Positions 6,789-16,424 of a stretch of 64,000 nucleotides of DNA are shown in pieces. Position numbers and translations under genes: made by a program. The notes below the pieces were generated by a model. The model was not told the DNA's origin. It made no database searches and was given only the letters and a program-made list of their open reading frames with translations. The stretch comes from a virus (Duplodnaviria > Heunggongvirae > Uroviricota > Caudoviricetes): IMG/VR virus record IMGVR_UViG_3300045988_150439; one strand, written 5' to 3'. Position 1 is the stretch's first letter; each line of letters starts with the position of its first letter.

Positions 6789-7529
6789 ATGAGCCAAATC
6801 TTTTTCGACACCATCGACAACGACCAGTACGACTTCATGACAGAGTGGAATACCGCTGTTATGGATAAGTGGGTTGCTGAAAACATTGGTTTGTCGCGCT
6901 GCAAAGACGAGGCTGAACTCTTCGATACGAAGTGGTTTGATTACCGCGACATGCATCCTCTTATGGCCACCTGTCTGTTTACGGAGGCATACAAACGTCA
7001 GTACTCAAATATCATGCTGACGCACGGTCGCGAACACTTTGAAACAGCTCCGTTCACCACCGGGTTAAAACGCCTGCCTTATCAGGAGTTGTCGACTGCC
7101 AATAAAACGTCGCTATGGAAAGCACGCCAGTTTGCTGACCGCTATTGCTGCTCATACGACTACTTTATCTCCACCGTTCTTTCCGCAGCTGCACGACGTC
7201 TGTGGGACAAGCTGCCTCGCCCACAGCATTTGTGGCAGCCAGAACTGATTGAGATATTTGAAGAGAAATTAGCCAGACGCGCAACAACCCGTCTGGATGA
7301 CTCTCTGGTTAGCTTTAAGCATATAGGAGACATGCAGTTCAACCCGATCCAGGAAAGCTATTTTGAGTGGATTCTGGAGCGTTTACGCACCATCCCCCGC
7401 AGCAAGCGCATACGCGCAATTTTCTCCGCTATCTGGCTAATGGAAATCGTTCCAGAGCGCCTTATTTCCGCCCACTTTCCAGAAGAACTGGAAGAAGCAC
7501 GGCGGTTTATTGATCCCCTATCCAATTAA
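6789..7529 (+). CDS. hypothetical protein
   Basis: ORF 6780..7529; ATG 6789 follows AGGTGA; no motif recognised. Confidence 0.5.
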   Translation: MSQIFFDTIDNDQYDFMTEWNTAVMDKWVAENIGLSRCKDEAELFDTKWFDYRDMHPLMATCLFTEAYKRQYSNIMLTHGREHFETAPFTTGLKRLPYQELSTANKTSLWKARQFADRYCCSYDYFISTVLSAAARRLWDKLPRPQHLWQPELIEIFEEKLARRATTRLDDSLVSFKHIGDMQFNPIQESYFEWILERLRTIPRSKRIRAIFSAIWLMEIVPERLISAHFPEELEEARRFIDPLSN

Positions 7530-7572
7530 CTAATACTAGAAAACAATTTGTTTAAAAAACAAAGGAAAGCAC

Positions 7573-8913
7573 ATGACCGAACTTTGCCATACAGGACGCG
7601 GGCTGTCCGAAGAGTTTGATGAAGATTTCCAGAACAGACTGACGGCATATTTTTGTCGTGATCACGAGTTTCTTACTCGTGCGGGAGATCTGGTTGTGCC
7701 TAGCCAATTTGCCAATGCGGCCAATGCCATATTGGTTAATATGGTTTCGGGCTATTACCGTATGTACAAGAGCGCGCCCTCTTCATCTGCAATTCTGGAT
7801 ATGCTTAAGCGTGCGAAACGCGATAAGACTATCCGTGAGGAACTATTCGCCGATGTTGTTGCTGCGTTTAAGCGCATCCTTGCAGAAAAATTGTCCGATA
7901 CCTCGTACATGGTTGACCAGGTATCAACCTTCGCAAAAAGCGTAGCGTTTGATGATGCTCTGATTAAGGCTGCTGAACTGAAAGAGAAGGGCGACTTTCA
8001 GGGGGCGATGGCAATCATGGCCAAGGTTCAGCAGATTGGATCGAACGAAGCGACCGGAATCTATGACTACTACACCTCAGCAAGTGAGCGACTGAAAGCG
8101 CGTGAATATGAGGCCTCAGAGGAGTATGTGCCAAACAGTATTACAACTGGACTCCCTCTTCTCGATAGGTTGCTGTACCAAAAAGGCTGGGCAAAGCGCG
8201 AAATGGTGCTCTTCATGGGGTTCGCTAAATCCGGTAAATCGACCGCAATGGGTGAGTTTTCCATAAACGCAACGCTTGCTGGCTACAATGTTCTGTATCT
8301 CTCGCTGGAGGTTCACACCACCATTTTATCCGACCGTTTTGACGCAAGATTGTCGGAGACAGAAATGTCCAAGCTGGTGGAACGGCGCGATGAGGTTCAT
8401 CGTAAGTTGGCAGAGTTGGGAGCCACGAAGGGGATTGGTAGTTTGTGGGTGGTTGAGCGTCCGTCAGGAAGTATATCACCGGCAGATCTGGATCGTATGC
8501 TCAACAGCATGAAAGCCAATGGCATGGTGCCTGACATGGTTGTTGTCGACTACGCAGATTTGATGCGTGCCAGTTATGACCTTCGTGATGATCGCGCCAA
8601 CATTCGTAGTATCTACACCGATTTGCGTGCTCTTTATGACAAGCATAACGTTGCTGGGATCACGGCATCGCAGACAAACCGTGAAGGTGGCGCGTCAGAA
8701 GTTGCCACAATGATGCACGCTGCCGACAACATCGAAAAAGTACGTATTGCTGACCTGGTAATAACGATCAACAAAACCGAAGAAGAAGAAGCGAAAGGAG
8801 AGGCTCGTCTCTACTTTGCTGGTTCACGTAACCAGCAGGGAGGGATCAGCATTCGCGTTAAACAAAACCTCGAACAAATGCGCTTCATTGAGCGAATCTT
8901 AGACGTTACCTAA
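7573..8913 (+). CDS. DnaB-like replicative DNA helicase
   Basis: 446 aa; Walker A GFAKSGKST mid-protein, Walker B-like DMVVVDYADL, ASQTNREG region; primase gene follows. Confidence 0.7.
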   Translation: MTELCHTGRGLSEEFDEDFQNRLTAYFCRDHEFLTRAGDLVVPSQFANAANAILVNMVSGYYRMYKSAPSSSAILDMLKRAKRDKTIREELFADVVAAFKRILAEKLSDTSYMVDQVSTFAKSVAFDDALIKAAELKEKGDFQGAMAIMAKVQQIGSNEATGIYDYYTSASERLKAREYEASEEYVPNSITTGLPLLDRLLYQKGWAKREMVLFMGFAKSGKSTAMGEFSINATLAGYNVLYLSLEVHTTILSDRFDARLSETEMSKLVERRDEVHRKLAELGATKGIGSLWVVERPSGSISPADLDRMLNSMKANGMVPDMVVVDYADLMRASYDLRDDRANIRSIYTDLRALYDKHNVAGITASQTNREGGASEVATMMHAADNIEKVRIADLVITINKTEEEEAKGEARLYFAGSRNQQGGISIRVKQNLEQMRFIERILDVT

Positions 8914-8994
8914 AAAATAAGCGTGGAGAACACCTCCACGCTTGATTCATTTGTGAAACAACTTTTCTTTTGCCAAACCACAAAAGAAAAACAC

Positions 8995-10173
8995 ATGAGC
9001 CTTTATGTTATATCAACATTTAGGTTGGTCACAATATTGCCTATTAAAAGTGGAATTATCGTGAGCGAGCTGAAAGAGCTAATTACCGAATTAGATTTTG
9101 AACAATGGTTGGACACTGAAGGTATCGTTTATCGACGTGGAGGCGTGAGTGCTCGCGGTCGTGAAGTGAATATCAAGGAGTGTCCGGTATGCGGCAGCTC
9201 CAACTGGAAGGTATATTTCAATCTGACCAGTGGTGTGGGTAAATGTTTCGCTGGCGACCATCCTGAAGAAATACAATTTAATAAGCTGGTGTTCCTCAAG
9301 CACTACAGCGGTAAATCACGGCGACAGTTCGAAGAATATGTGCAGAACGCCCTTCTTTCTCAGGGTTGGGCACCAAAGAAAGAAGAGATAGTGCTTGCAA
9401 GCACAGTCGAGTTAGAGGGGCCACTTGCACTCCCTCGTCATTACGAACTTCCTATAGATGGCCGTCTTCCAGACTATCTGGTTGAACGAAACATATCGCC
9501 TGAAATGGCAAAGTATTTTGACCTACGATACTGCGTCGAAGGTAAGCACGCCTATGTAGATCCGTATACAGATCAGGTTAAAGGACAGATATTCGATATG
9601 CGAATACTGATACCGGTTTACGATCTGGATGGGGTAATGAAGACATTTCAGGGACGAGACATTACCGGTACAGCAGAACGCCGCTACCTCTTTCCTATGC
9701 AGCTTCCAGCTTCAGGTAAATTTCTCTACAACGGCCATAATGCAGTCGGCAAACAGACTGTAGTTGTCTGTGAGGGTGCGTTCGATGTTATGGGGGTCAA
9801 ACGAGCTATTTTCGACGAAGAAACATTACGTGATTACGTGGAGCCAATAGGAACGTTCGGGATGCATCTATCTGGCAACACCACTCAGGATGCAGAAGAT
9901 CAGTTGGGCGCGTTCCTGACGCTCAAAGCGCGTGGATTACGTAATGTGATCATGATGTGGGATAGTGAAAAGCAAGCTATACGTAATACGATGGCCGCAG
10001 CCAGGCGACTGACCAGTATTGGTCTTAATGTCAAAGTGGCGTGTTTGGGCGAGGAAGGACTCGACCCGGGCGATGCAACGCCAGAGCAAATCATCAAAGC
10101 CTATTATCGGGCAAAACCGTATACCAAGCAGTTGGAGTTACAAAGCAAGGTTTTGGGCATTAAGGCTCTATGA
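8995..10173 (+). CDS. DNA primase (zinc ribbon + TOPRIM)
   Basis: ORF 8923..10173; probable ATG 8995 in conserved aaaaacacATG context. Zinc ribbon CPVCGSS..GKC, TOPRIM-like VVVCEGAFDVMG. Confidence 0.7.
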   Translation: MSLYVISTFRLVTILPIKSGIIVSELKELITELDFEQWLDTEGIVYRRGGVSARGREVNIKECPVCGSSNWKVYFNLTSGVGKCFAGDHPEEIQFNKLVFLKHYSGKSRRQFEEYVQNALLSQGWAPKKEEIVLASTVELEGPLALPRHYELPIDGRLPDYLVERNISPEMAKYFDLRYCVEGKHAYVDPYTDQVKGQIFDMRILIPVYDLDGVMKTFQGRDITGTAERRYLFPMQLPASGKFLYNGHNAVGKQTVVVCEGAFDVMGVKRAIFDEETLRDYVEPIGTFGMHLSGNTTQDAEDQLGAFLTLKARGLRNVIMMWDSEKQAIRNTMAAARRLTSIGLNVKVACLGEEGLDPGDATPEQIIKAYYRAKPYTKQLELQSKVLGIKAL

Positions 10174-10251
10174 TAACAATCACCTTTAAAATAAGTAGAT
10201 GATTACTTATCTTTCTGTGAGAATACTTTCATCTGTTAGCTAGGAGTTGGT

Positions 10252-11028
10252 ATGAAAGACGAAATTCAGAAATTAGCCTGCGACATCATTGATAAAACTG
10301 GTTTAGAAATCAGCGAGAGCAATCGGCTAGACATCATTGAAAAAGCCGTAAAAACAGCAATGGATCATATCGCCACTCGTTTGGTCGAGATCCCGCTACC
10401 AGGGCTACCTTATCTGAAAGTTGAGTTACACGTATGGGGTGAACCTTCTTGTTCACGGCGTTCTGCATTAGTTGTTTTTATTAGCAAAGAAAACCCGCTC
10501 AGTCTTAAAGTGCAGGTTGGTGCATGGATGGATGGAAAAGTGATCTACACAAATACCGTTTTTTGTCTTTCAAACGACGAAACTATTGAAGCGGCCATTC
10601 AAGAAGCAGTTCTAGCAATGCGCAGCAGCGGTTTGATGAAGAATAACTACGAAGAGTACTTGCGTTCGATAAGTGGTGAAAAGACATTATCTCTGAAAGC
10701 AGATTTCGTTACCCCGAAAAATCTGTTGGAAGTCTTGCTTAATAAAGGGGCTAATGATGCCGTAAATGTAATCAGAGAGAGTGAGTATGCGTCTCTTTGC
10801 GACATGTGCAAAAGCCAGTTGGATCTGGTGCATATCGTTATTGATGCTGGGAAGGCATGTGATGGCGTAATGGCGGAATTTGCTTGGAAGGTGGTCAGGA
10901 TTGCTAACGAATTACCGATGATAGAGCAAGAGGCCAAATCATACGCCACCAATCATGTCACAGAGCTTCTTGTCCCCTATCGCTTAGAAAGCAATCAGCG
11001 CAAGATGGTTAGCTGGGGAAGTTGGTAA
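10252..11028 (+). CDS. hypothetical protein
   Basis: 258 aa ORF with AGGAG upstream; no motif recognised. Confidence 0.5.
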   Translation: MKDEIQKLACDIIDKTGLEISESNRLDIIEKAVKTAMDHIATRLVEIPLPGLPYLKVELHVWGEPSCSRRSALVVFISKENPLSLKVQVGAWMDGKVIYTNTVFCLSNDETIEAAIQEAVLAMRSSGLMKNNYEEYLRSISGEKTLSLKADFVTPKNLLEVLLNKGANDAVNVIRESEYASLCDMCKSQLDLVHIVIDAGKACDGVMAEFAWKVVRIANELPMIEQEAKSYATNHVTELLVPYRLESNQRKMVSWGSW

Positions 11029-11083
11029 TCTCTCCGCGCGTCGTTTTTTACGCAAATAACGATAGGTAAGTACAAGATTATTT

Positions 11084-11566
11084 ATGGCGGTAGTTGTGAA
11101 AGCTGATTTGTCAAAAATCCCTTCTATTTCAGGAAATAACGGTTATTCACTTCGTTGTGAGGAAGTAAAGATAAACGGTGAGTCGGCATATTGCAGCTAT
11201 TCCGTTTGCCAGCACACCATTCTTGCCTTCAAAGAAAACCGTCTTCCTCGAACTTCTTTCCAGTCGTGCGCAACCGCTATTAAAGCAGGCAAATGCAAGG
11301 CGTTAAAAATGATGGTTGAAGAGATTCGTAAAGGAGAATCTCTGTATTTCGAAGATATGACCGCGCTCATTAAGGAGGTTGAAGAACGGAATAAACAAGC
11401 CAGAACTATAAAACGAAAACGTGACAGTGTAACGATTAATAGCATGGTTAAGAAGAGCACCACATCACAAACAGCGATCACTGACGTGTATGCGGCGTTG
11501 CTTGAAGAAACAACAAAAGAAACACATGAGCAAATCGATCAACATATGGAGGCAAAACAACAATGA
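11084..11566 (+). CDS. hypothetical protein
   Basis: 160 aa ORF, Cys-containing N-terminus, basic C-terminus; stop overlaps ligase start. Confidence 0.45.
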   Translation: MAVVVKADLSKIPSISGNNGYSLRCEEVKINGESAYCSYSVCQHTILAFKENRLPRTSFQSCATAIKAGKCKALKMMVEEIRKGESLYFEDMTALIKEVEERNKQARTIKRKRDSVTINSMVKKSTTSQTAITDVYAALLEETTKETHEQIDQHMEAKQQ

Positions 11567-12885
11567 AAAAGTTGATCGCACTTAAGCATAAGCTGGACGA
11601 AATGAAAGCTATGGGAACCAATGCAAAAAAAGAGGCATTGGCCAACATGGATGACTTCGAGCAAAGCATGGTTTCATTGATGCTCAACCCTTTCATCCGT
11701 TTTGGGGTAAAGAAATACAAAGTGGCAGAGCCGCTTAGTGAGTCCATCCCAAGTGACGAAAAAGCCATTGATGTACTGAATAAGCTGGCCTCTCGCGAGC
11801 TAACGGGGAACGCAGCAATAGCTGCTGTTGAGTCTATCGTGGCGTCAATGTGCGCCGATGGGCAGGACGTGTTCCGTCGTTTCCTCTTAAAAGACCCGAA
11901 AGCAGGTGTTGGGATTAGCCTATGCAACAAGGTTTTTGAAAATCCCATTCCGAAATTCGAGGTGCAGCTGGCGTCACCGTATAAAGAAAAAGGCGACAAA
12001 TACCCCTTCAAGCCAAATCCTAAAGCAAAATGGCCGATGATTGGCAGTCTTAAGCTCGATGGTTTGCGAGTAATTTGTGAGGTTATTGTTGACGAGGAAG
12101 AGGTGAACTTCCTTTCTCGTACTGGTAATCCAATCACGTCTCTCGATCACCTAAAGCCAGCCATGCTCGAATTAGGCAAACTTTCAGGCCACAAACACAT
12201 CTTCTTCGATGGTGAAGGAACAGCCGGTTCATTTAACCAGTCCGTATCTGCATTGCGCAAAAAGAACGTGCAGGCAATTGGCGCTATTTATCATGTTTTC
12301 GACTTCTTCCTACCGGAATGGCGGGCACAGGCTAAATCCAAAGAGTATGCAAAGACAGGTATGAAGCTGAAAGAGCGCCTGGCTATTCTCGTGGCGTTGT
12401 TCAAAAACGATCGCAGTGAAGGCTACGCACAAGACATTCACCTGCATCCGTTCTATATCATCCATAGCCACGAAGATTTCATCGAACGCTTCATGAAACG
12501 CCTGGACGATAACGAAGAAGGGGAGATGGGCAAAGATCCGAACTCTGTTTACGAGTTTAAACGTACCCGCAGCTGGTGGAAGTTAAAAGACGAAGATTCA
12601 GAAGATGGTGAAATTATCGACTTTGAGCCGGGCGACCCGGACTCTGGTTTTGCCAACACGCTTGGAAAAATTGTTATTCGCCTTGAAAACGGTGTGATTG
12701 TTCGTGCGAGCGGCATTAAGCATAAATATCTGGACGAGATCTGGAACAACAAAGAGAAGTACCGTGGTCGTATTGTCGAGGTTCATTGTCACGAGAAAAC
12801 GCCGGATGGCAGCTTACGCCACCCACGACTGAAATGGCCGCGTTGCTTACGCGATACAGAAGATCGAATCGGAGATAAAGAATGA
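11563..12885 (+). CDS. ATP-dependent DNA ligase
   Basis: 440 aa; adenylation motif KxDG (GSLKLDGLRV), FFDGEG motif, C-terminal OB-like region. Confidence 0.75.
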   Translation: MKKLIALKHKLDEMKAMGTNAKKEALANMDDFEQSMVSLMLNPFIRFGVKKYKVAEPLSESIPSDEKAIDVLNKLASRELTGNAAIAAVESIVASMCADGQDVFRRFLLKDPKAGVGISLCNKVFENPIPKFEVQLASPYKEKGDKYPFKPNPKAKWPMIGSLKLDGLRVICEVIVDEEEVNFLSRTGNPITSLDHLKPAMLELGKLSGHKHIFFDGEGTAGSFNQSVSALRKKNVQAIGAIYHVFDFFLPEWRAQAKSKEYAKTGMKLKERLAILVALFKNDRSEGYAQDIHLHPFYIIHSHEDFIERFMKRLDDNEEGEMGKDPNSVYEFKRTRSWWKLKDEDSEDGEIIDFEPGDPDSGFANTLGKIVIRLENGVIVRASGIKHKYLDEIWNNKEKYRGRIVEVHCHEKTPDGSLRHPRLKWPRCLRDTEDRIGDKE

Positions 12886-13061
12886 TGCTCGGCTGGATGA
12901 TTGCATTTTTAGCAGTTGGTTTTTTCATCGGTATTGTGGTGATGTCCAGTTGCATTAATGACTACATTAAAAACGGTGTTATAGAAAGACGCGGTCGCAT
13001 TTATCGCATTGTAGAAATAACCAACACCGTGAAGGAGATTAAGGATGATCGTATTAAGTAA
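12882..13061 (+). CDS. small membrane protein (59 aa), paralog A
   Basis: Below ORF-track cutoff; ATG overlaps ligase stop (ATGA). One TM helix then GRRGRIYRIVEITNT tail. Confidence 0.4.
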   Translation: MMLGWMIAFLAVGFFIGIVVMSSCINDYIKNGVIERRGRIYRIVEITNTVKEIKDDRIK

Positions 13062-13260
13062 ACGGGAGAAGGAAACGCTTCATGAAATCAGTAAGTGGCC
13101 GGAGTTCCCTGAGTACTGGAAGCCTAAAACGCGAGCTAAGTTAGAGCGTTTAGGGTTGGTTGCAAACGTTTCTGAAACGTGGTGTTCGGCCAACTACCAG
13201 TTAACTGATAAAGGGAAAGTATTGCTACAGCAATTAGTAGAATCAGGAGCGTTAAAATGA
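13045..13260 (+). CDS. hypothetical protein (71 aa)
   Basis: ORF in track; part of a translationally coupled gene chain. Confidence 0.45.
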   Translation: MIVLSKREKETLHEISKWPEFPEYWKPKTRAKLERLGLVANVSETWCSANYQLTDKGKVLLQQLVESGALK

Positions 13261-13409
13261 TTCCATACATCTCATTAGCTTTTATGGGTGGCTTCCTTAT
13301 CGGCTTCGGCATCTGTCGTGATTTAATTAAGCAGGAACTTAAAACCAAAACACTGTGCATCGGAAAGCGTGTGTATCGGGTAGTTCATGAAACAAAGGTG
13401 AAAAAATGA
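13257..13409 (+). CDS. small membrane protein (50 aa), paralog B
   Basis: Below cutoff; ATGA overlap with upstream stop. TM helix then GKRVYRVVHETKV tail resembling the 12882..13061 product. Confidence 0.4.
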   Translation: MIPYISLAFMGGFLIGFGICRDLIKQELKTKTLCIGKRVYRVVHETKVKK

Positions 13410-13696
13410 GCAATTTAACTTCTTGGGAATGGTGGTTGGCCACCTATTTCTTAGCGACCGGAGTCGCATTCGCCTTTTACGTAGGTCAGTTAGTCGTAAA
13501 ACTGTTGCTTATTAAATTTGCTAGTCATAAACGTATCGATGATGGTCTGTGGCGTCTTGGTACCCTGGTGGAAACTCGCTACGGGCAACTTAAGGAGAAC
13601 GAAACCATTACTATCCAAGCGAAACGATTCACTGCCACCATCACAAGAACACCTGATCGTAGAGTGGCCTTGATCAAAAAAGTCACAACCGAATAA
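13406..13696 (+). CDS. membrane protein (96 aa)
   Basis: ATGA overlap with upstream gene; N-terminal TM helix WWLATYFLATGVAFAFYVG. Confidence 0.45.
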   Translation: MSNLTSWEWWLATYFLATGVAFAFYVGQLVVKLLLIKFASHKRIDDGLWRLGTLVETRYGQLKENETITIQAKRFTATITRTPDRRVALIKKVTTE

Positions 13697-14086
13697 AAAC
13701 ATGGTGATAAGTATTTACTTACTTATCTTTTATGTATAAGATGACTTTGTTTTCGTTGAGACGCGACTGTTTGAACTTAAATACAAGTGCAAACGAAGAA
13801 GTCTATCTGGCAGTAGCCTAATAAGCCAAACACCAGCGAGGTCAGTTTCCAGCCTCGTTACCGAAATGGGACACACTGAGCGAGTGTGATTGCAGAACGC
13901 AGGAGGGAACATTCATGTTCCCTCCGATGAAGTAACAGAATGGGCGGTTGGTATATTTTCAACTCCATATGACTCCCGGATTCTTAGCCACTGACCGCCC
14001 ATCCTGTTACGTCATTTTGTTCAATTATGTCGTTTATACTGGGTTAAAAAGCGGCGACGTAGCCCGGCTGGTATGGTTAGCCAGCA

Positions 14087-14208
14087 CACAACGTTGAGGC
14101 CATTACATTTTTATCAATTCTAAGGTTCTATTCACAGAGATACCGGCGAGCGTTGATATGTAACATGTTGGGCAAACATTCAATCGGAGTAGTGGCCTCA
14201 ACGTTGTG
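14087..14208 (+). ncRNA. long hairpin unit 0 (possible small stable RNA)
   Basis: Perfect 16-bp inverted repeat cacaacgttgaggcca / tggcctcaacgttgtg enclosing ~90 nt; ORF-free region upstream of tRNAs. Confidence 0.3.
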
Positions 14209-14474
14209 AAGACGGGATTGTTGTGTAGGTTTAACCACTGTTGCCATTGGTGCCTGTTTTCACAACAAATGATTCCATACATCACATTGTATAAATTACA
14301 AAGTAGGTGCTGTCCTCAGAAACATCATCTACTTAAAGATTTTGCCTTCTACTATTGAGCGAAGTCGAAAGCGTCTGGCACTAACGAAAAGTGCAAGTAG
14401 CGGTGCGTTTCCTGGCAGAAACTAAACCGTCGCGATTGGCACTGTTGAGTAATAAATACTGGCAGTGCTGAATT

Positions 14475-14549
14475 GATGGTGTAGCTCAGCGGTAGAGCAG
14501 TTGGCTGTTAACCAACTGGTCGGTGGTTCGAATCCACCCACCATCGCCA
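14475..14549 (+). tRNA. tRNA-Asn (anticodon GTT)
   Basis: Cloverleaf by eye: acceptor gatggtg/caccatc, D-arm gctc..gagc, anticodon stem gttgg/ccaac loop ctGTTaa, T-arm ggtgg-ttcgaat-ccacc, encoded CCA. Confidence 0.85.
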
Positions 14550-14551
14550 AT

Positions 14552-14627
14552 GCCGGTTTAGCTCAGTTGGTAGAGCACCTGCCTTGTAAGCAGGATGTCA
14601 GCGGTTCGATCCCGTTAACCGGCACCA
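14552..14627 (+). tRNA. tRNA-Thr (anticodon TGT)
   Basis: Acceptor gccggtt/aaccggc, anticodon stem cctgc/gcagg loop ctTGTaa, T-loop ttcgatc, encoded CCA. Confidence 0.85.
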
Positions 14628-14720
14628 ACACAACAGGTAAGAGCATTGGGCGAATCGGCGATACTGACCCACAAGCCCGTAAATCGATAGAGTCAGACCA
14701 GTGCTCTTACCGTTGTGAGG
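14626..14720 (+). ncRNA. long hairpin unit 1 (possible small stable RNA)
   Basis: 15-bp stem acaacaggtaagagca / tgctcttaccgttgt (one mismatch) enclosing ~55 nt; shares stem-base cacaac/gttgtg with units 0 and 2. Confidence 0.3.
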
Positions 14721-14764
14721 AAGTGCAGCTCTTTGAAGCAACCAGAAGATAAGCATCTGGCTTC

Positions 14765-14850
14765 ACAACACAACGATAAGATCATTACGGTTAATCGTCG
14801 TTCATGTGCACAATGACTGGTCGAAAGGTAGTGATCTTACCGTTGTGATG
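14765..14850 (+). ncRNA. long hairpin unit 2 (possible small stable RNA)
   Basis: 16-bp stem cacaacgataagatca / tgatcttaccgttgtg (one mismatch); 3' flank cttaccgttgtga[g/t]gaa shared with unit 1. Confidence 0.3.
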
Positions 14851-14947
14851 AATGCACAGGCTGATGTGCCGCAACTACAGTAGTGCGCGCTTTGCGGGGC
14901 TTGCTACAACCCTGTGTCGGAGTTCAGCACCGACCATCACAATAGCT

Positions 14948-15034
14948 GGAGAGTAGGGAGCATGGTGCTCAAGCGGTCTTGAAAACCGTCCCATTGCGCA
15001 AGCGATGATGGTTCGATTCCATTACTCTCCGCCA
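14948..15034 (+). tRNA. tRNA-Ser (anticodon TGA), type II
   Basis: Acceptor ggagagt/actctcc, anticodon stem gcggt/accgt loop ctTGAaa, long variable arm, T-loop ttcgatt, encoded CCA; about 87 nt. Confidence 0.75.
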
Positions 15035-15148
15035 GACACAGCGTTGAGCGGTTTGGCCTTTTAATCACCCAGATTAAGACTCCGCTAACATAAACCAGAC
15101 CGCTCAACGCTGTGATAGACAATTACGGCAGACGTTCTTAACCATAGC

Positions 15149-15177
15149 TTGCTAACATCCTAGCAACACTTTTTTTC
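15149..15177 (+). terminator. rho-independent terminator after tRNA cluster
   Basis: Hairpin ttgcta-acatcc-tagcaa followed by cacttttttt. Confidence 0.55.
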
Positions 15178-15189
15178 AGCGCAAAATTC

Positions 15190-15210
15190 AAAGGGGCTTC
15201 GGCCCCTTTT
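15190..15210. terminator. bidirectional terminator hairpin
   Basis: aaaggggc-ttcg-gcccctttt, flanked by A/T runs on both strands, between plus-strand tRNAs and the minus-strand cassette. Confidence 0.55.
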
Positions 15211-15212
15211 CT

Positions 15213-16424
15213 TCAAAAAAGTTTTATAAATTCATAATTCTGGTCAATTAAGGATTCAATACACACCATGCAAAAATCTACATCGTTAAAATCAGGTGTG
15301 TAATATTCATCCTCATAACATTCATTTAGACCTTCAATCAATTTTTCTTTAAAAACTCCCCACGTTTCAATATGAACCATTTCCATATAAGGCGCATGTG
15401 TATGTACTTGCAATACATCCCAGGTGTCTATAACCTCGATCCGCGGCTTGCAATTAATTTTTTCTAAATATGCCCTCCCAGAATTGTAAATTTTCGACAT
15501 TGATGCCCCAAAACCTGATGGTTGGTAATGAGTGTAAATGTCATAAATTTTTTGTCCTATTCTAGGGAGTTGAGAAGCATTGGATATTTGTGGCGAATGA
15601 AAGTATCGCTCTATGGAAGAAAACGCAGAAACATTAACTAGAGTAATCGTATATGGTGCTAAAGTTCTCTCGTTCAAATTTCTACATAAAATAGCAAACC
15701 CATGGCTATTAGTCTTTTCACCGTCTGAGGACATTTTTGCCATGCTGGCTTTAATAACATTCAATTTCGAATGTAAACGAGAAGTGGAAGTCGGTTGATT
15801 ATACATTTCATCATCATACAAACATATATGAAACCCGCCAAGATGACGAAATGAGAACTTGAGTGCTTCTTCCGCAATAACTAATTTATTAATATCTAAA
15901 GGAGTAAGTGATACGTTACCTTGTAAATCATAGCAAGGTTCTAAACATAGAAAGTTTTTCTTCTGCCACACAATCATATTAAAAATAAAGTGTCTAACCA
16001 AAGGTGGCCAGTCAGGTGATATAAGTACATTGGTAATATCTCCATCAGACAAGTATGACAAGTAACTTTTTAGTTCCGCAGCATATGCCACTAGCTCAGT
16101 TCCAGCTTCCCTTGTTGGTGTTGAAAAATTTTTTAACTCAATAAGAACTAAGGATTCATTCTCTGTTGAATAAGCAACGACATCAGGTCTTAATATCTCA
16201 GATTTTGTTGCTGAGATATTTTCATCATCTGTCATTAAATGTAACAATGTTATATTCTTTAAACAAAACTGATAACTCTCCTTAATTTTTTTCTCTTCGG
16301 GTCTTTTCGGATTAAATTCATTTAATTTATCAATATTGATGATTGAATTATATAATCCATCTTGATCAGATAATTTGTCAATTATCCAATTTTGCATTTC
16401 CTTTTCGCTTAAAAATATTGACAC
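15213..16424 (-). CDS. 403-aa protein with PD-(D/E)xK-like nuclease motif; distal gene of AT-rich two-gene cassette (AbiGii position)
   Basis: GTG start; PDVVAY...SLVLIELK resembles a D..ExK restriction-endonuclease-fold motif; very AT-rich; 26 nt from upstream gene. Confidence 0.45.
   Translation of the reverse strand: MSIFLSEKEMQNWIIDKLSDQDGLYNSIINIDKLNEFNPKRPEEKKIKESYQFCLKNITLLHLMTDDENISATKSEILRPDVVAYSTENESLVLIELKNFSTPTREAGTELVAYAAELKSYLSYLSDGDITNVLISPDWPPLVRHFIFNMIVWQKKNFLCLEPCYDLQGNVSLTPLDINKLVIAEEALKFSFRHLGGFHICLYDDEMYNQPTSTSRLHSKLNVIKASMAKMSSDGEKTNSHGFAILCRNLNERTLAPYTITLVNVSAFSSIERYFHSPQISNASQLPRIGQKIYDIYTHYQPSGFGASMSKIYNSGRAYLEKINCKPRIEVIDTWDVLQVHTHAPYMEMVHIETWGVFKEKLIEGLNECYEDEYYTPDFNDVDFCMVCIESLIDQNYEFIKLF

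Follow-up and report, generated by a model that had tools for sequence, protein, structure and literature searches.

The window analysed here, a 64,000-nt stretch of viral DNA (IMG/VR record IMGVR_UViG_3300045988_150439; all positions are those of this stretch), carries four small genes, which we call A59, B71, C50 and D96, directly after the gene of an ATP-dependent DNA ligase, on what we identify below as an SSU5-type phage-plasmid of E. coli. Sequence comparisons establish that A59 and C50 are ancient paralogs and members of one family of tiny membrane proteins, which the PHROG library separates into phrog_4381 and phrog_6302; that these two are one family is what the databases have overlooked. 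In the overall picture that we propose, and to which we give even chances, the four genes form the tail of a replication operon, and a protein of the family of A59 and C50 (hereafter the A/C family) would act with D96 as a membrane pair in lytic growth.

A59 and C50 belong to one family of predicted small membrane proteins

An earlier note on this DNA had described the two shortest products as a duplicated small membrane-protein family. A Smith-Waterman alignment of A59 with C50 scored 52, a value reached by none of 2000 global shuffles (z 7.4) and, when the transmembrane (TM) segment and the tail were shuffled separately, by only 2 of 5000 (z 4.6); the similarity thus exceeds the shuffled controls in both settings. 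The two proteins have in common the motif R-(I/V)-Y-R-(I/V)-V-x-x-T in the tail and G-x-x-x-G in the helix.

We considered the possibility that this likeness is convergent or compositional, both proteins consisting of a TM helix followed by a basic tail, or that the reading frames are non-functional. Such an explanation would fit the weakness of the alignment when it is restricted to the tails (z 2.6; 119 of 5000 shuffles), the absence of similarity between the two genes at the DNA level (z 0.37), and the outcome of word-indexed protein searches, in which neither the A59 nor the C50 family recovered the other. Yet comparison of the two family alignments with hhalign gave a probability of 82-85% (E-value (E) 1e-5) over an ungapped, full-length alignment, whereas the equally hydrophobic profile of D96, taken as a negative control, gave 0.5-1.4%. 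Segment-preserving permutation of the columns (n = 300) yielded scores of 11.9 +/- 2.6 with a maximum of 22.2, as compared with 29.5 observed, so that none of the 300 permuted profiles reached the observed score. The invariant columns of the two families also coincide, namely the G-x-x-x-G of the helix and the R, Y, R, V and T of the tail; when the families are aligned jointly, A4, R39, Y41 and R42 never vary, and G13, G17, V44 and T47 reach a conservation of 90% or more.

Sequences from other lineages (numbered with the prefix L) form bridges between the two families, with values from 1e-7 to 1e-10. Lineage L090 has a single-copy protein that matches phrog_6302 (1.2e-8) and phrog_4381 (4.3e-8) about equally well, and the C-like protein of a divergent Klebsiella group, L010, also matches both PHROGs. 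In L095 the gene is present in two tandem copies, which cross-match the hidden Markov models (HMMs) of both families (A-like against C, 1.8e-7; C-like against A, 5.6e-10). The signature of the family is an N-terminal helix with G-x-x-x-G and, about 20 residues further on, R-(I/V)-Y-(R/K)-(I/V)-V. Profile comparison, column permutations, and bridging and tandem sequences thus agree with the earlier note on a duplicated family and, together with the purifying selection on both genes described below, largely refute convergence, which we regard as extremely improbable. The weak tail-only alignment and the lack of DNA similarity indicate instead that the duplication is old.

D96 was tried as a third paralog and rejected. 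The tails of both kinds of protein carry an h-aromatic-R-h motif (h, hydrophobic), but hhalign gave no more than the 0.5-1.4% mentioned above and the tail alignments had z <= 0.

A profile search with both families among 1.84 billion representatives found only 22 proteins, all from SSU5-type elements or short metagenome contigs. The A/C family is therefore confined to SSU5-type elements, and there is no larger family from which a function could be borrowed.

The four genes are under purifying selection and already catalogued

A59, B71, C50 and D96 are real protein-coding genes, as judged from the substitution pattern. Compared with the window sequence, the ratio of nonsynonymous to synonymous substitution rates (dN/dS) was 0.10-0.23 for A59 and mostly 0.13-0.29 for C50 (overall about 0.13-0.3). 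The uncorrected ratio (pN/pS) was 0.13-0.45 in all four genes, and in each of them the third codon position varied most.

The supposition that these genes had been missed by length-filtered calling of open reading frames (ORFs) does not hold as worded. RefSeq annotates all four on the identical plasmid, they are likewise annotated in SSU5 and in pJN2-26, and each has one PHROG of its own, with no function assigned; A59, C50 and D96 are full-length members of the families of SSU5 gp45, gp47 and gp48 (PHROGs 4381, 6302 and 4507), which have homologues in pHCM2 and pMT1. Only some records omit one gene; A59 is lacking in the annotation of Cyrano. The proteins were thus already catalogued as hypothetical proteins of a well-known element, and what is new is modest: the merger of the two PHROGs, the conserved association with D96, and copy-number variants that occur naturally.

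In annotations by the Prokaryotic Genome Annotation Pipeline, D96 and its orthologs bear the name 'C-type natriuretic protein', which looks like a propagated legacy label. No profile supports this name, there being no natriuretic-peptide match in Pfam at E <= 1 and none in NCBIfam, and a literature search returned nothing on these genes or on "C-type natriuretic protein" in plasmids.

Predicted topology and domains of the products

The highest Kyte-Doolittle averages over 19 residues were 2.55 for A59 (residues 7-25), 1.84 for C50 (residues 2-20), 1.87 for D96 and 0.33 for B71. A hydrophobic segment is thus predicted in both small products, as the earlier note had it. In A59, C50 and D96 no lysine or arginine precedes the helix and three to four follow within 15 residues, which predicts an N-out/C-in orientation; the tails carry net charges of about +2 to +3 (A59, whole protein +3), +7 (C50) and +6 (D96). 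We infer that all three are single-pass inner-membrane proteins with basic cytoplasmic tails. In an AlphaFold2 (AF2) model of A59 the TM helix has a predicted local distance difference test score (pLDDT) of 81-90.

A lipoprotein of the T5 Llp/Cor type, which would need a signal peptide with a conserved lipobox [LVI][ASTVI][GAS]C, was also considered for A59, the A59 clade having the sequence VMSSC, but there is no basic n-region. This reading was rejected because the cysteine is absent in C50 orthologs and in the members from L010, L090 and L089.

D96 combines its N-terminal TM helix with a conserved basic domain, the conserved core of which is FASHKRIDDGLWRLG.L.E; this cytoplasmic domain is probably beta-rich. 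B71, which is soluble, is the most conserved of the four proteins, with 82% mean column identity among orthologs, and is a probable small winged-helix DNA-binding protein. Its matches to winged helix-turn-helix (wHTH) families are consistent, but all are sub-threshold: HTH_45 was matched by 10 of 12 orthologs (E 0.0036 at best, which is under the gathering score), and there were matches to Csa3 wHTH (E 0.0015) and MarR 2rdp (E 0.35). They cover the recognition-helix and wing part of these families, and a single-sequence AF2 model of B71 has a pLDDT of 58, too low to be of use. Sequence and profile searches of the PDB with B71, D96 and the A/C family gave chance-level matches only.

The small genes lie at the end of a replication operon

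Positions 11500-14000 share 98.7% identity with Escherichia phage Cyrano (pLF82) and some 79% with Salmonella phage SSU5, and positions 12700-13800 are 100% identical to E. coli plasmid p88COLEC-2. These near-identities, together with the likeness to SSU5, identify the whole window as an SSU5-type phage-plasmid. The segment 12700-13800 is matched by 801 PLSDB plasmids from Klebsiella, Escherichia, Enterobacter, Salmonella, Yersinia and other genera.

On the same strand, 5' of the cassette, are genes for a DnaB-like helicase, a primase, two hypothetical proteins and the ligase, with which the large genes of the replication operon end and at the stop codon of which the chain of small genes begins (Table 1). 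A 160-aa ORF (11084-11566) in turn overlaps the ligase start by ATGA, which makes the chain one of six genes. The four small genes are most likely the 3' tail of this operon of helicase, primase and ligase genes, and the hairpin with T-run directly after D96, which is conserved across all lineages, is likely to be its end. A G+C-based terminator scan did not report this AT-rich hairpin, and a consensus scan of the + strand from 7500 to 15500 found no sigma-70-like promoter. Further 3' follow tRNA genes and a variable accessory island with Abi and toxin-antitoxin genes.

Table 1. Position, closest families and signals of the ligase gene, the four small genes and the hairpin that follows them
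Feature	Positions	Strand	Family match	Shine-Dalgarno motif or fold
ATP-dependent DNA ligase (440 aa)	11563-12885	+	phrog_114 (E 1.4e-125); Pfam DNA_ligase_A_M (E 5e-13)	
A59 (59 aa)	12882-13061	+	phrog_4381 (E 5e-39)	GGAG, 12871-12874
B71 (71 aa)	13045-13260	+	phrog_4054 (E 1e-45)	AGGAG, 13033-13037
C50 (50 aa)	13257-13409	+	phrog_6302 (E 1.4e-36)	AGGAG, 13245-13249
D96 (96 aa)	13406-13696	+	phrog_4507 (E 3.7e-58)	AAGGTG, 13395-13400
AT-rich hairpin then T-run, directly 3' of the D96 stop	13699-13735	+		Fold dG -12.3 kcal/mol, z -3.5

Each of the four genes was said to start with an ATG overlapping the preceding stop. True ATGA overlaps are found at three junctions, ligase/A59, B71/C50 and C50/D96. 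The fourth is different: A59 and B71 overlap by 17 nt (13045-13061), and the B71 start does read ATGA, but the TGA there is not in the frame of A59, whose stop is the TAA at 13059-13061. A59 could also start at its second ATG (12885), which is the one chosen by RefSeq and would give 58 aa and a 1-nt overlap with the ligase. A Shine-Dalgarno-like motif lies 6-8 nt 5' of all four starts, within the preceding gene.

The geometry of the junctions was compared over 88 related loci, the synonymous sites of which are near saturation. The ligase and A genes overlap by 4 nt in 57 loci and by 1 nt in 27, B and C by 4 nt in 59 and by 1 nt in 24, A and B by 17 nt in 83 of 86, and C and D by 4 nt in 72 of 73. 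A chain of genes with coupling-type junctions, as the earlier note had proposed, is thus kept across about 88 loci. Such junctions are otherwise few: in 50 kb of the identical plasmid we counted about nine overlapping same-strand junctions, five of which belong to this run. The stop/start overlaps and the internal Shine-Dalgarno sites lead us to expect that translation of each small gene would depend on translation of the gene upstream.

B71 is in the +1 frame of A59 at 13045-13061, and the 17-nt overlap is kept also in the deep L010 lineage. A frameshift at this place would join the membrane anchor of A59 to B71; no slippery sequence was seen there.

An A/C-family gene followed by a D-family gene is the core of the cassette

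Among PLSDB plasmids the ligase was found in 759, A59 in 542, B71 in 637, C50 in 784 and D96 in 653, C50 being the most widespread member of the cassette; among E. coli plasmids A59 was found in 139 and C50 in about 218. The commonest arrangement is ligase-A-B-C-D, and the order of the genes after the ligase is identical in SSU5, pJN2-26, Y. pestis pG8786 and Cronobacter pH322_1.

Many E. coli plasmids have ligase-B-C-D, from which A59 is precisely deleted, as it is in pYPE3-114k. The deletion comprises 163 nt between the near-repeats GGAGAT(A/T)AAG(A/G)ATGAT and leaves the ligase stop overlapping the B71 start, which indicates that A59 is gained or lost as a module that preserves the stop/start overlap. 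In the window the near-repeats read GGAGATAAAGAATGAT at the ligase/A59 junction (12866-12886) and GGAGATTAAGGATGAT at the A59/B71 junction (13029-13049).

Other lineages depart further from this layout. L095 has ligase-A-C-D, the two copies standing in tandem with nothing between them, and L090 and L094 have ligase-X-D, where X is a single A/C gene; B71 is absent in all three. A large Klebsiella clade (L009, positions 2303-2551; K. pneumoniae pF5_2) carries an in-frame fusion of the first ~70 residues of the ligase with the last 12 of B71. The fusion removes the catalytic domains of the ligase, A59 and most of B71, and retains the ATGA junction to C50, after which C and D follow. In L008, found in some Klebsiella plasmids, C is disrupted and D absent.

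The slot after the ligase and before a D-family gene is held by the A/C family in the 88 loci and in four further lineages, and an A/C gene is followed directly by a D gene in nearly every lineage examined (L010, L090, L094 and L095 among them), the exception being of the L008 type. The D-like proteins of the divergent lineages are distant, though still recognisable, homologues of D96 (HMM E 1.8e-19 to 1e-5). As judged from these arrangements, the core is an A/C-family gene with the adjacent D-family gene, and A59 and B71 are dispensable or accessory.

The cassette is silent in the lysogen

RNA-seq of the LF82 (Cyrano) lysogen gave 5.0-7.6 normalised reads for the ligase, B71, C50 and D96 (CYRAN_36-39; PMC9928086, S1 Table). 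These values are at the floor or background, the same as for structural genes, as compared with 96 for the repressor and about 7000 for a moron, and the authors do not list CYRAN_36-39 among the genes that are expressed in lysogeny (PMC9928086). The cassette is therefore transcriptionally silent in the plasmid (lysogenic) state and belongs to the repressed, lytic programme. A type I toxin or Hok-like maintenance peptide was considered and rejected: the genes form part of an operon and overlap with their neighbours, and they are at background in the lysogen, where the known toxin-antitoxin genes of the element are expressed.

Possible role of the membrane pair

In the mechanism that we propose, A59, C50 and D96 would each insert by one helix into the inner membrane, N-out/C-in, with the GxxxG motif serving for packing in the helices of A59 and C50. 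The cytoplasmic tails would act through an R-h-Y-R-h-V strand motif in A/C proteins and an h-W-R-h motif in D96, and the A/C protein and D96 would form a pair anchored in the membrane and synthesised at a constant ratio in lytic growth, A59 being a redundant extra copy. The pair might then serve as an adaptor tethered to the membrane, at the cytoplasmic face of which it would hold or organise phage DNA under replication, or else a replication factor, perhaps with the assistance of B71.

In phi29, p16.7 and p1 are membrane proteins by which replication of the phage DNA is organised at the membrane (review, PMC4974454). Both are small and are expressed in the early or replication phase. The A/C proteins would resemble these two in having an N-terminal membrane anchor and a cytoplasmic C-terminal part. 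They differ in that their tails have only about 30 residues, as compared with about 70 in the defined, dimeric DNA-binding domain of p16.7; moreover, phi29 has a Gram-positive host and protein-primed replication, and its proteins have no sequence similarity to A/C. We favour the adaptor for replicating DNA or a replication factor because of the operon context, the cytoplasmic position of the conserved motif and the adjacent gene for a probable winged-helix protein, but hold it weakly, as possible rather than likely. Several points weigh against the proposed picture as a whole. The likeness to phi29 p16.7 is one of architecture and context only. The A59 tail is modelled by AF2 with low confidence (pLDDT ~59) and as helical rather than as a strand; searches of Pfam, NCBIfam, PADLOC and the PDB revealed neither a DNA-binding domain nor any other known one in A, C or D; and the basic tails may be a mere effect of the positive-inside rule. 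The cassette is also partly dispensable, as seen from the L008 arrangement and from the deletion of the ligase itself in L009, so that its function would be accessory rather than essential. A bolder version, in which the A/C-D pair would be an unrecognised membrane module of the SSU5 lineage that physically couples lytic DNA replication or repair (ligase, primase, helicase) to the inner membrane, with A59 and B71 providing some lineages with a second, DNA-addressed version of the anchor, seems to us quite unlikely.

The same proteins could instead serve in early lytic modulation of the host or in superinfection exclusion, binding as bitopic proteins to a host inner-membrane protein (a DNA-entry channel, a transporter, the divisome or a protease would be candidates) through helix-helix contacts. 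T4 Imm and Sp, HK97 gp15, AcrZ and MgrB all bind and modulate host inner-membrane proteins, and the very small size of the single-pass A/C proteins and their conserved GxxxG would suit such a role. So would the position of an accessory, variably present cassette next to a variable island with Abi and toxin-antitoxin genes, and the restriction of the family to one lineage (the 22 proteins mentioned above), which is typical of host-interaction genes. T4 Imm and Sp are likewise small, bitopic and early lytic; they gave no sequence match in Pfam, PHROGs or PADLOC, and the functional parts of Sp are periplasmic while the conserved part of A/C is predicted to be cytoplasmic. Proteins of the AcrZ, MgrB and MgtS class are, like A/C, about 50 residues long with one helix and probably bind their partners in the membrane, but they are encoded by stand-alone chromosomal genes with their own regulation, whereas the A/C genes are phage genes embedded in an operon, with a conserved motif in a soluble tail. 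That this motif, and not the helix or the periplasmic end of 1-8 residues, is the best-conserved part of the proteins argues against host modulation, as does the fact that no family of known function in PADLOC, Pfam or the PHROGs resembles them; silence in the lysogen indicates that these are not classic prophage exclusion genes. On balance we hold host modulation to be possible but unlikely. A role in the timing of lysis, with A59, C50 and D96 acting like holins, antiholins or releasins, is suggested by their small size, single TM helix and charged, basic tail at the C-terminus, and by a weak match of D96 to holin phrog_2359 (E 0.013). This match is limited to the TM segment, 27 hydrophobic residues of D96; the genes lie within the replication operon next to the ligase with no endolysin beside them and do not qualify as holin genes, and sequence conservation of a tail motif is unusual in holins, all of which makes a lysis function very unlikely.

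Phages abound in small membrane proteins of unknown function. SSU5-like phage-plasmids are common in clinical Enterobacterales, and the ~800 PLSDB matches include plasmids of the Y. pestis pMT1 type and the S. Typhi pHCM2 type. The present analysis merges two orphan PHROGs and describes a two-gene membrane module with natural knock-outs (the A59 deletion and the single-copy and tandem-copy lineages), variants that provide a testable entry into an uncharacterised part of the SSU5-type lytic programme.

A tmRNA-like RNA and tRNA genes lie downstream

An unannotated, structured RNA resembling transfer-messenger RNA (tmRNA) was seen at 13745-14010, where the sequence is conserved far better than the genes; the conserved block probably reaches about 14470, up to tRNA-Asn at 14475. 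A start-less tag frame at 13790-13825 (GCA AAC GAA GAA GTC TAT CTG GCA GTA GCC TAA TAA) reads ANEEVYLAVA followed by two stop codons; the ssrA tag of E. coli is ANDENYALAA. Variants of the tag in other lineages are ANEDTYLAVA, ANDNQYLAVA, ANEDAYLAVA, ANDTQYLAVA and ANDDVVLMAA, and an in-frame upstream start codon is lacking in all non-E. coli lineages. The flanking RNA contains conserved helices, seven of them with compensatory changes. Matches to the Rfam tmRNA models were sub-threshold, with 14-22 bits in the window and 39 bits together with a T-arm match in L010, where a T-arm-like hairpin lies about 330 nt 3' of the tag. ARAGORN at default settings reported no tmRNA. No acceptor stem was found in the window, so that membership in the tmRNA class is not established. 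An exact-pattern scan of genome contigs for the tag gave no match, RefSeq annotates nothing here in any of the 246 complete E. coli genomes with this region, and a literature search found no link between tmRNA and SSU5, pHCM2 or pMT1.

A promoter-like TTTACT-17 nt-TAAGAT (TATGAT in Klebsiella) was noticed by eye in the alignment at 13715-13743, in all lineages. It lies upstream of the conserved RNA block, overlaps the hairpin after D96 and was not reported by the consensus scan; it may be a promoter for the tmRNA-like RNA and the tRNA-Asn/Thr/Ser cluster.

On the 110.6-kb contig of L090, positions 8810-8885 encode an amber-reading tRNA (anticodon CTA), labelled tRNA-Pyl by ARAGORN. An insertion of about 311 nt distinguishes the window from Cyrano at 14628-14947, between tRNA-Thr and tRNA-Ser, and has the inverted repeat CAACAGGTAAGAGCA / TGCTCTTACCGTTGTG at its ends. 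Motifs similar to this repeat follow tRNA-Asn in Cronobacter and L063 loci, and a part of the insertion, GGCGATACTGACCCAC...GATAGAGTCAGAC, recurs within the tmRNA-like region of L010.

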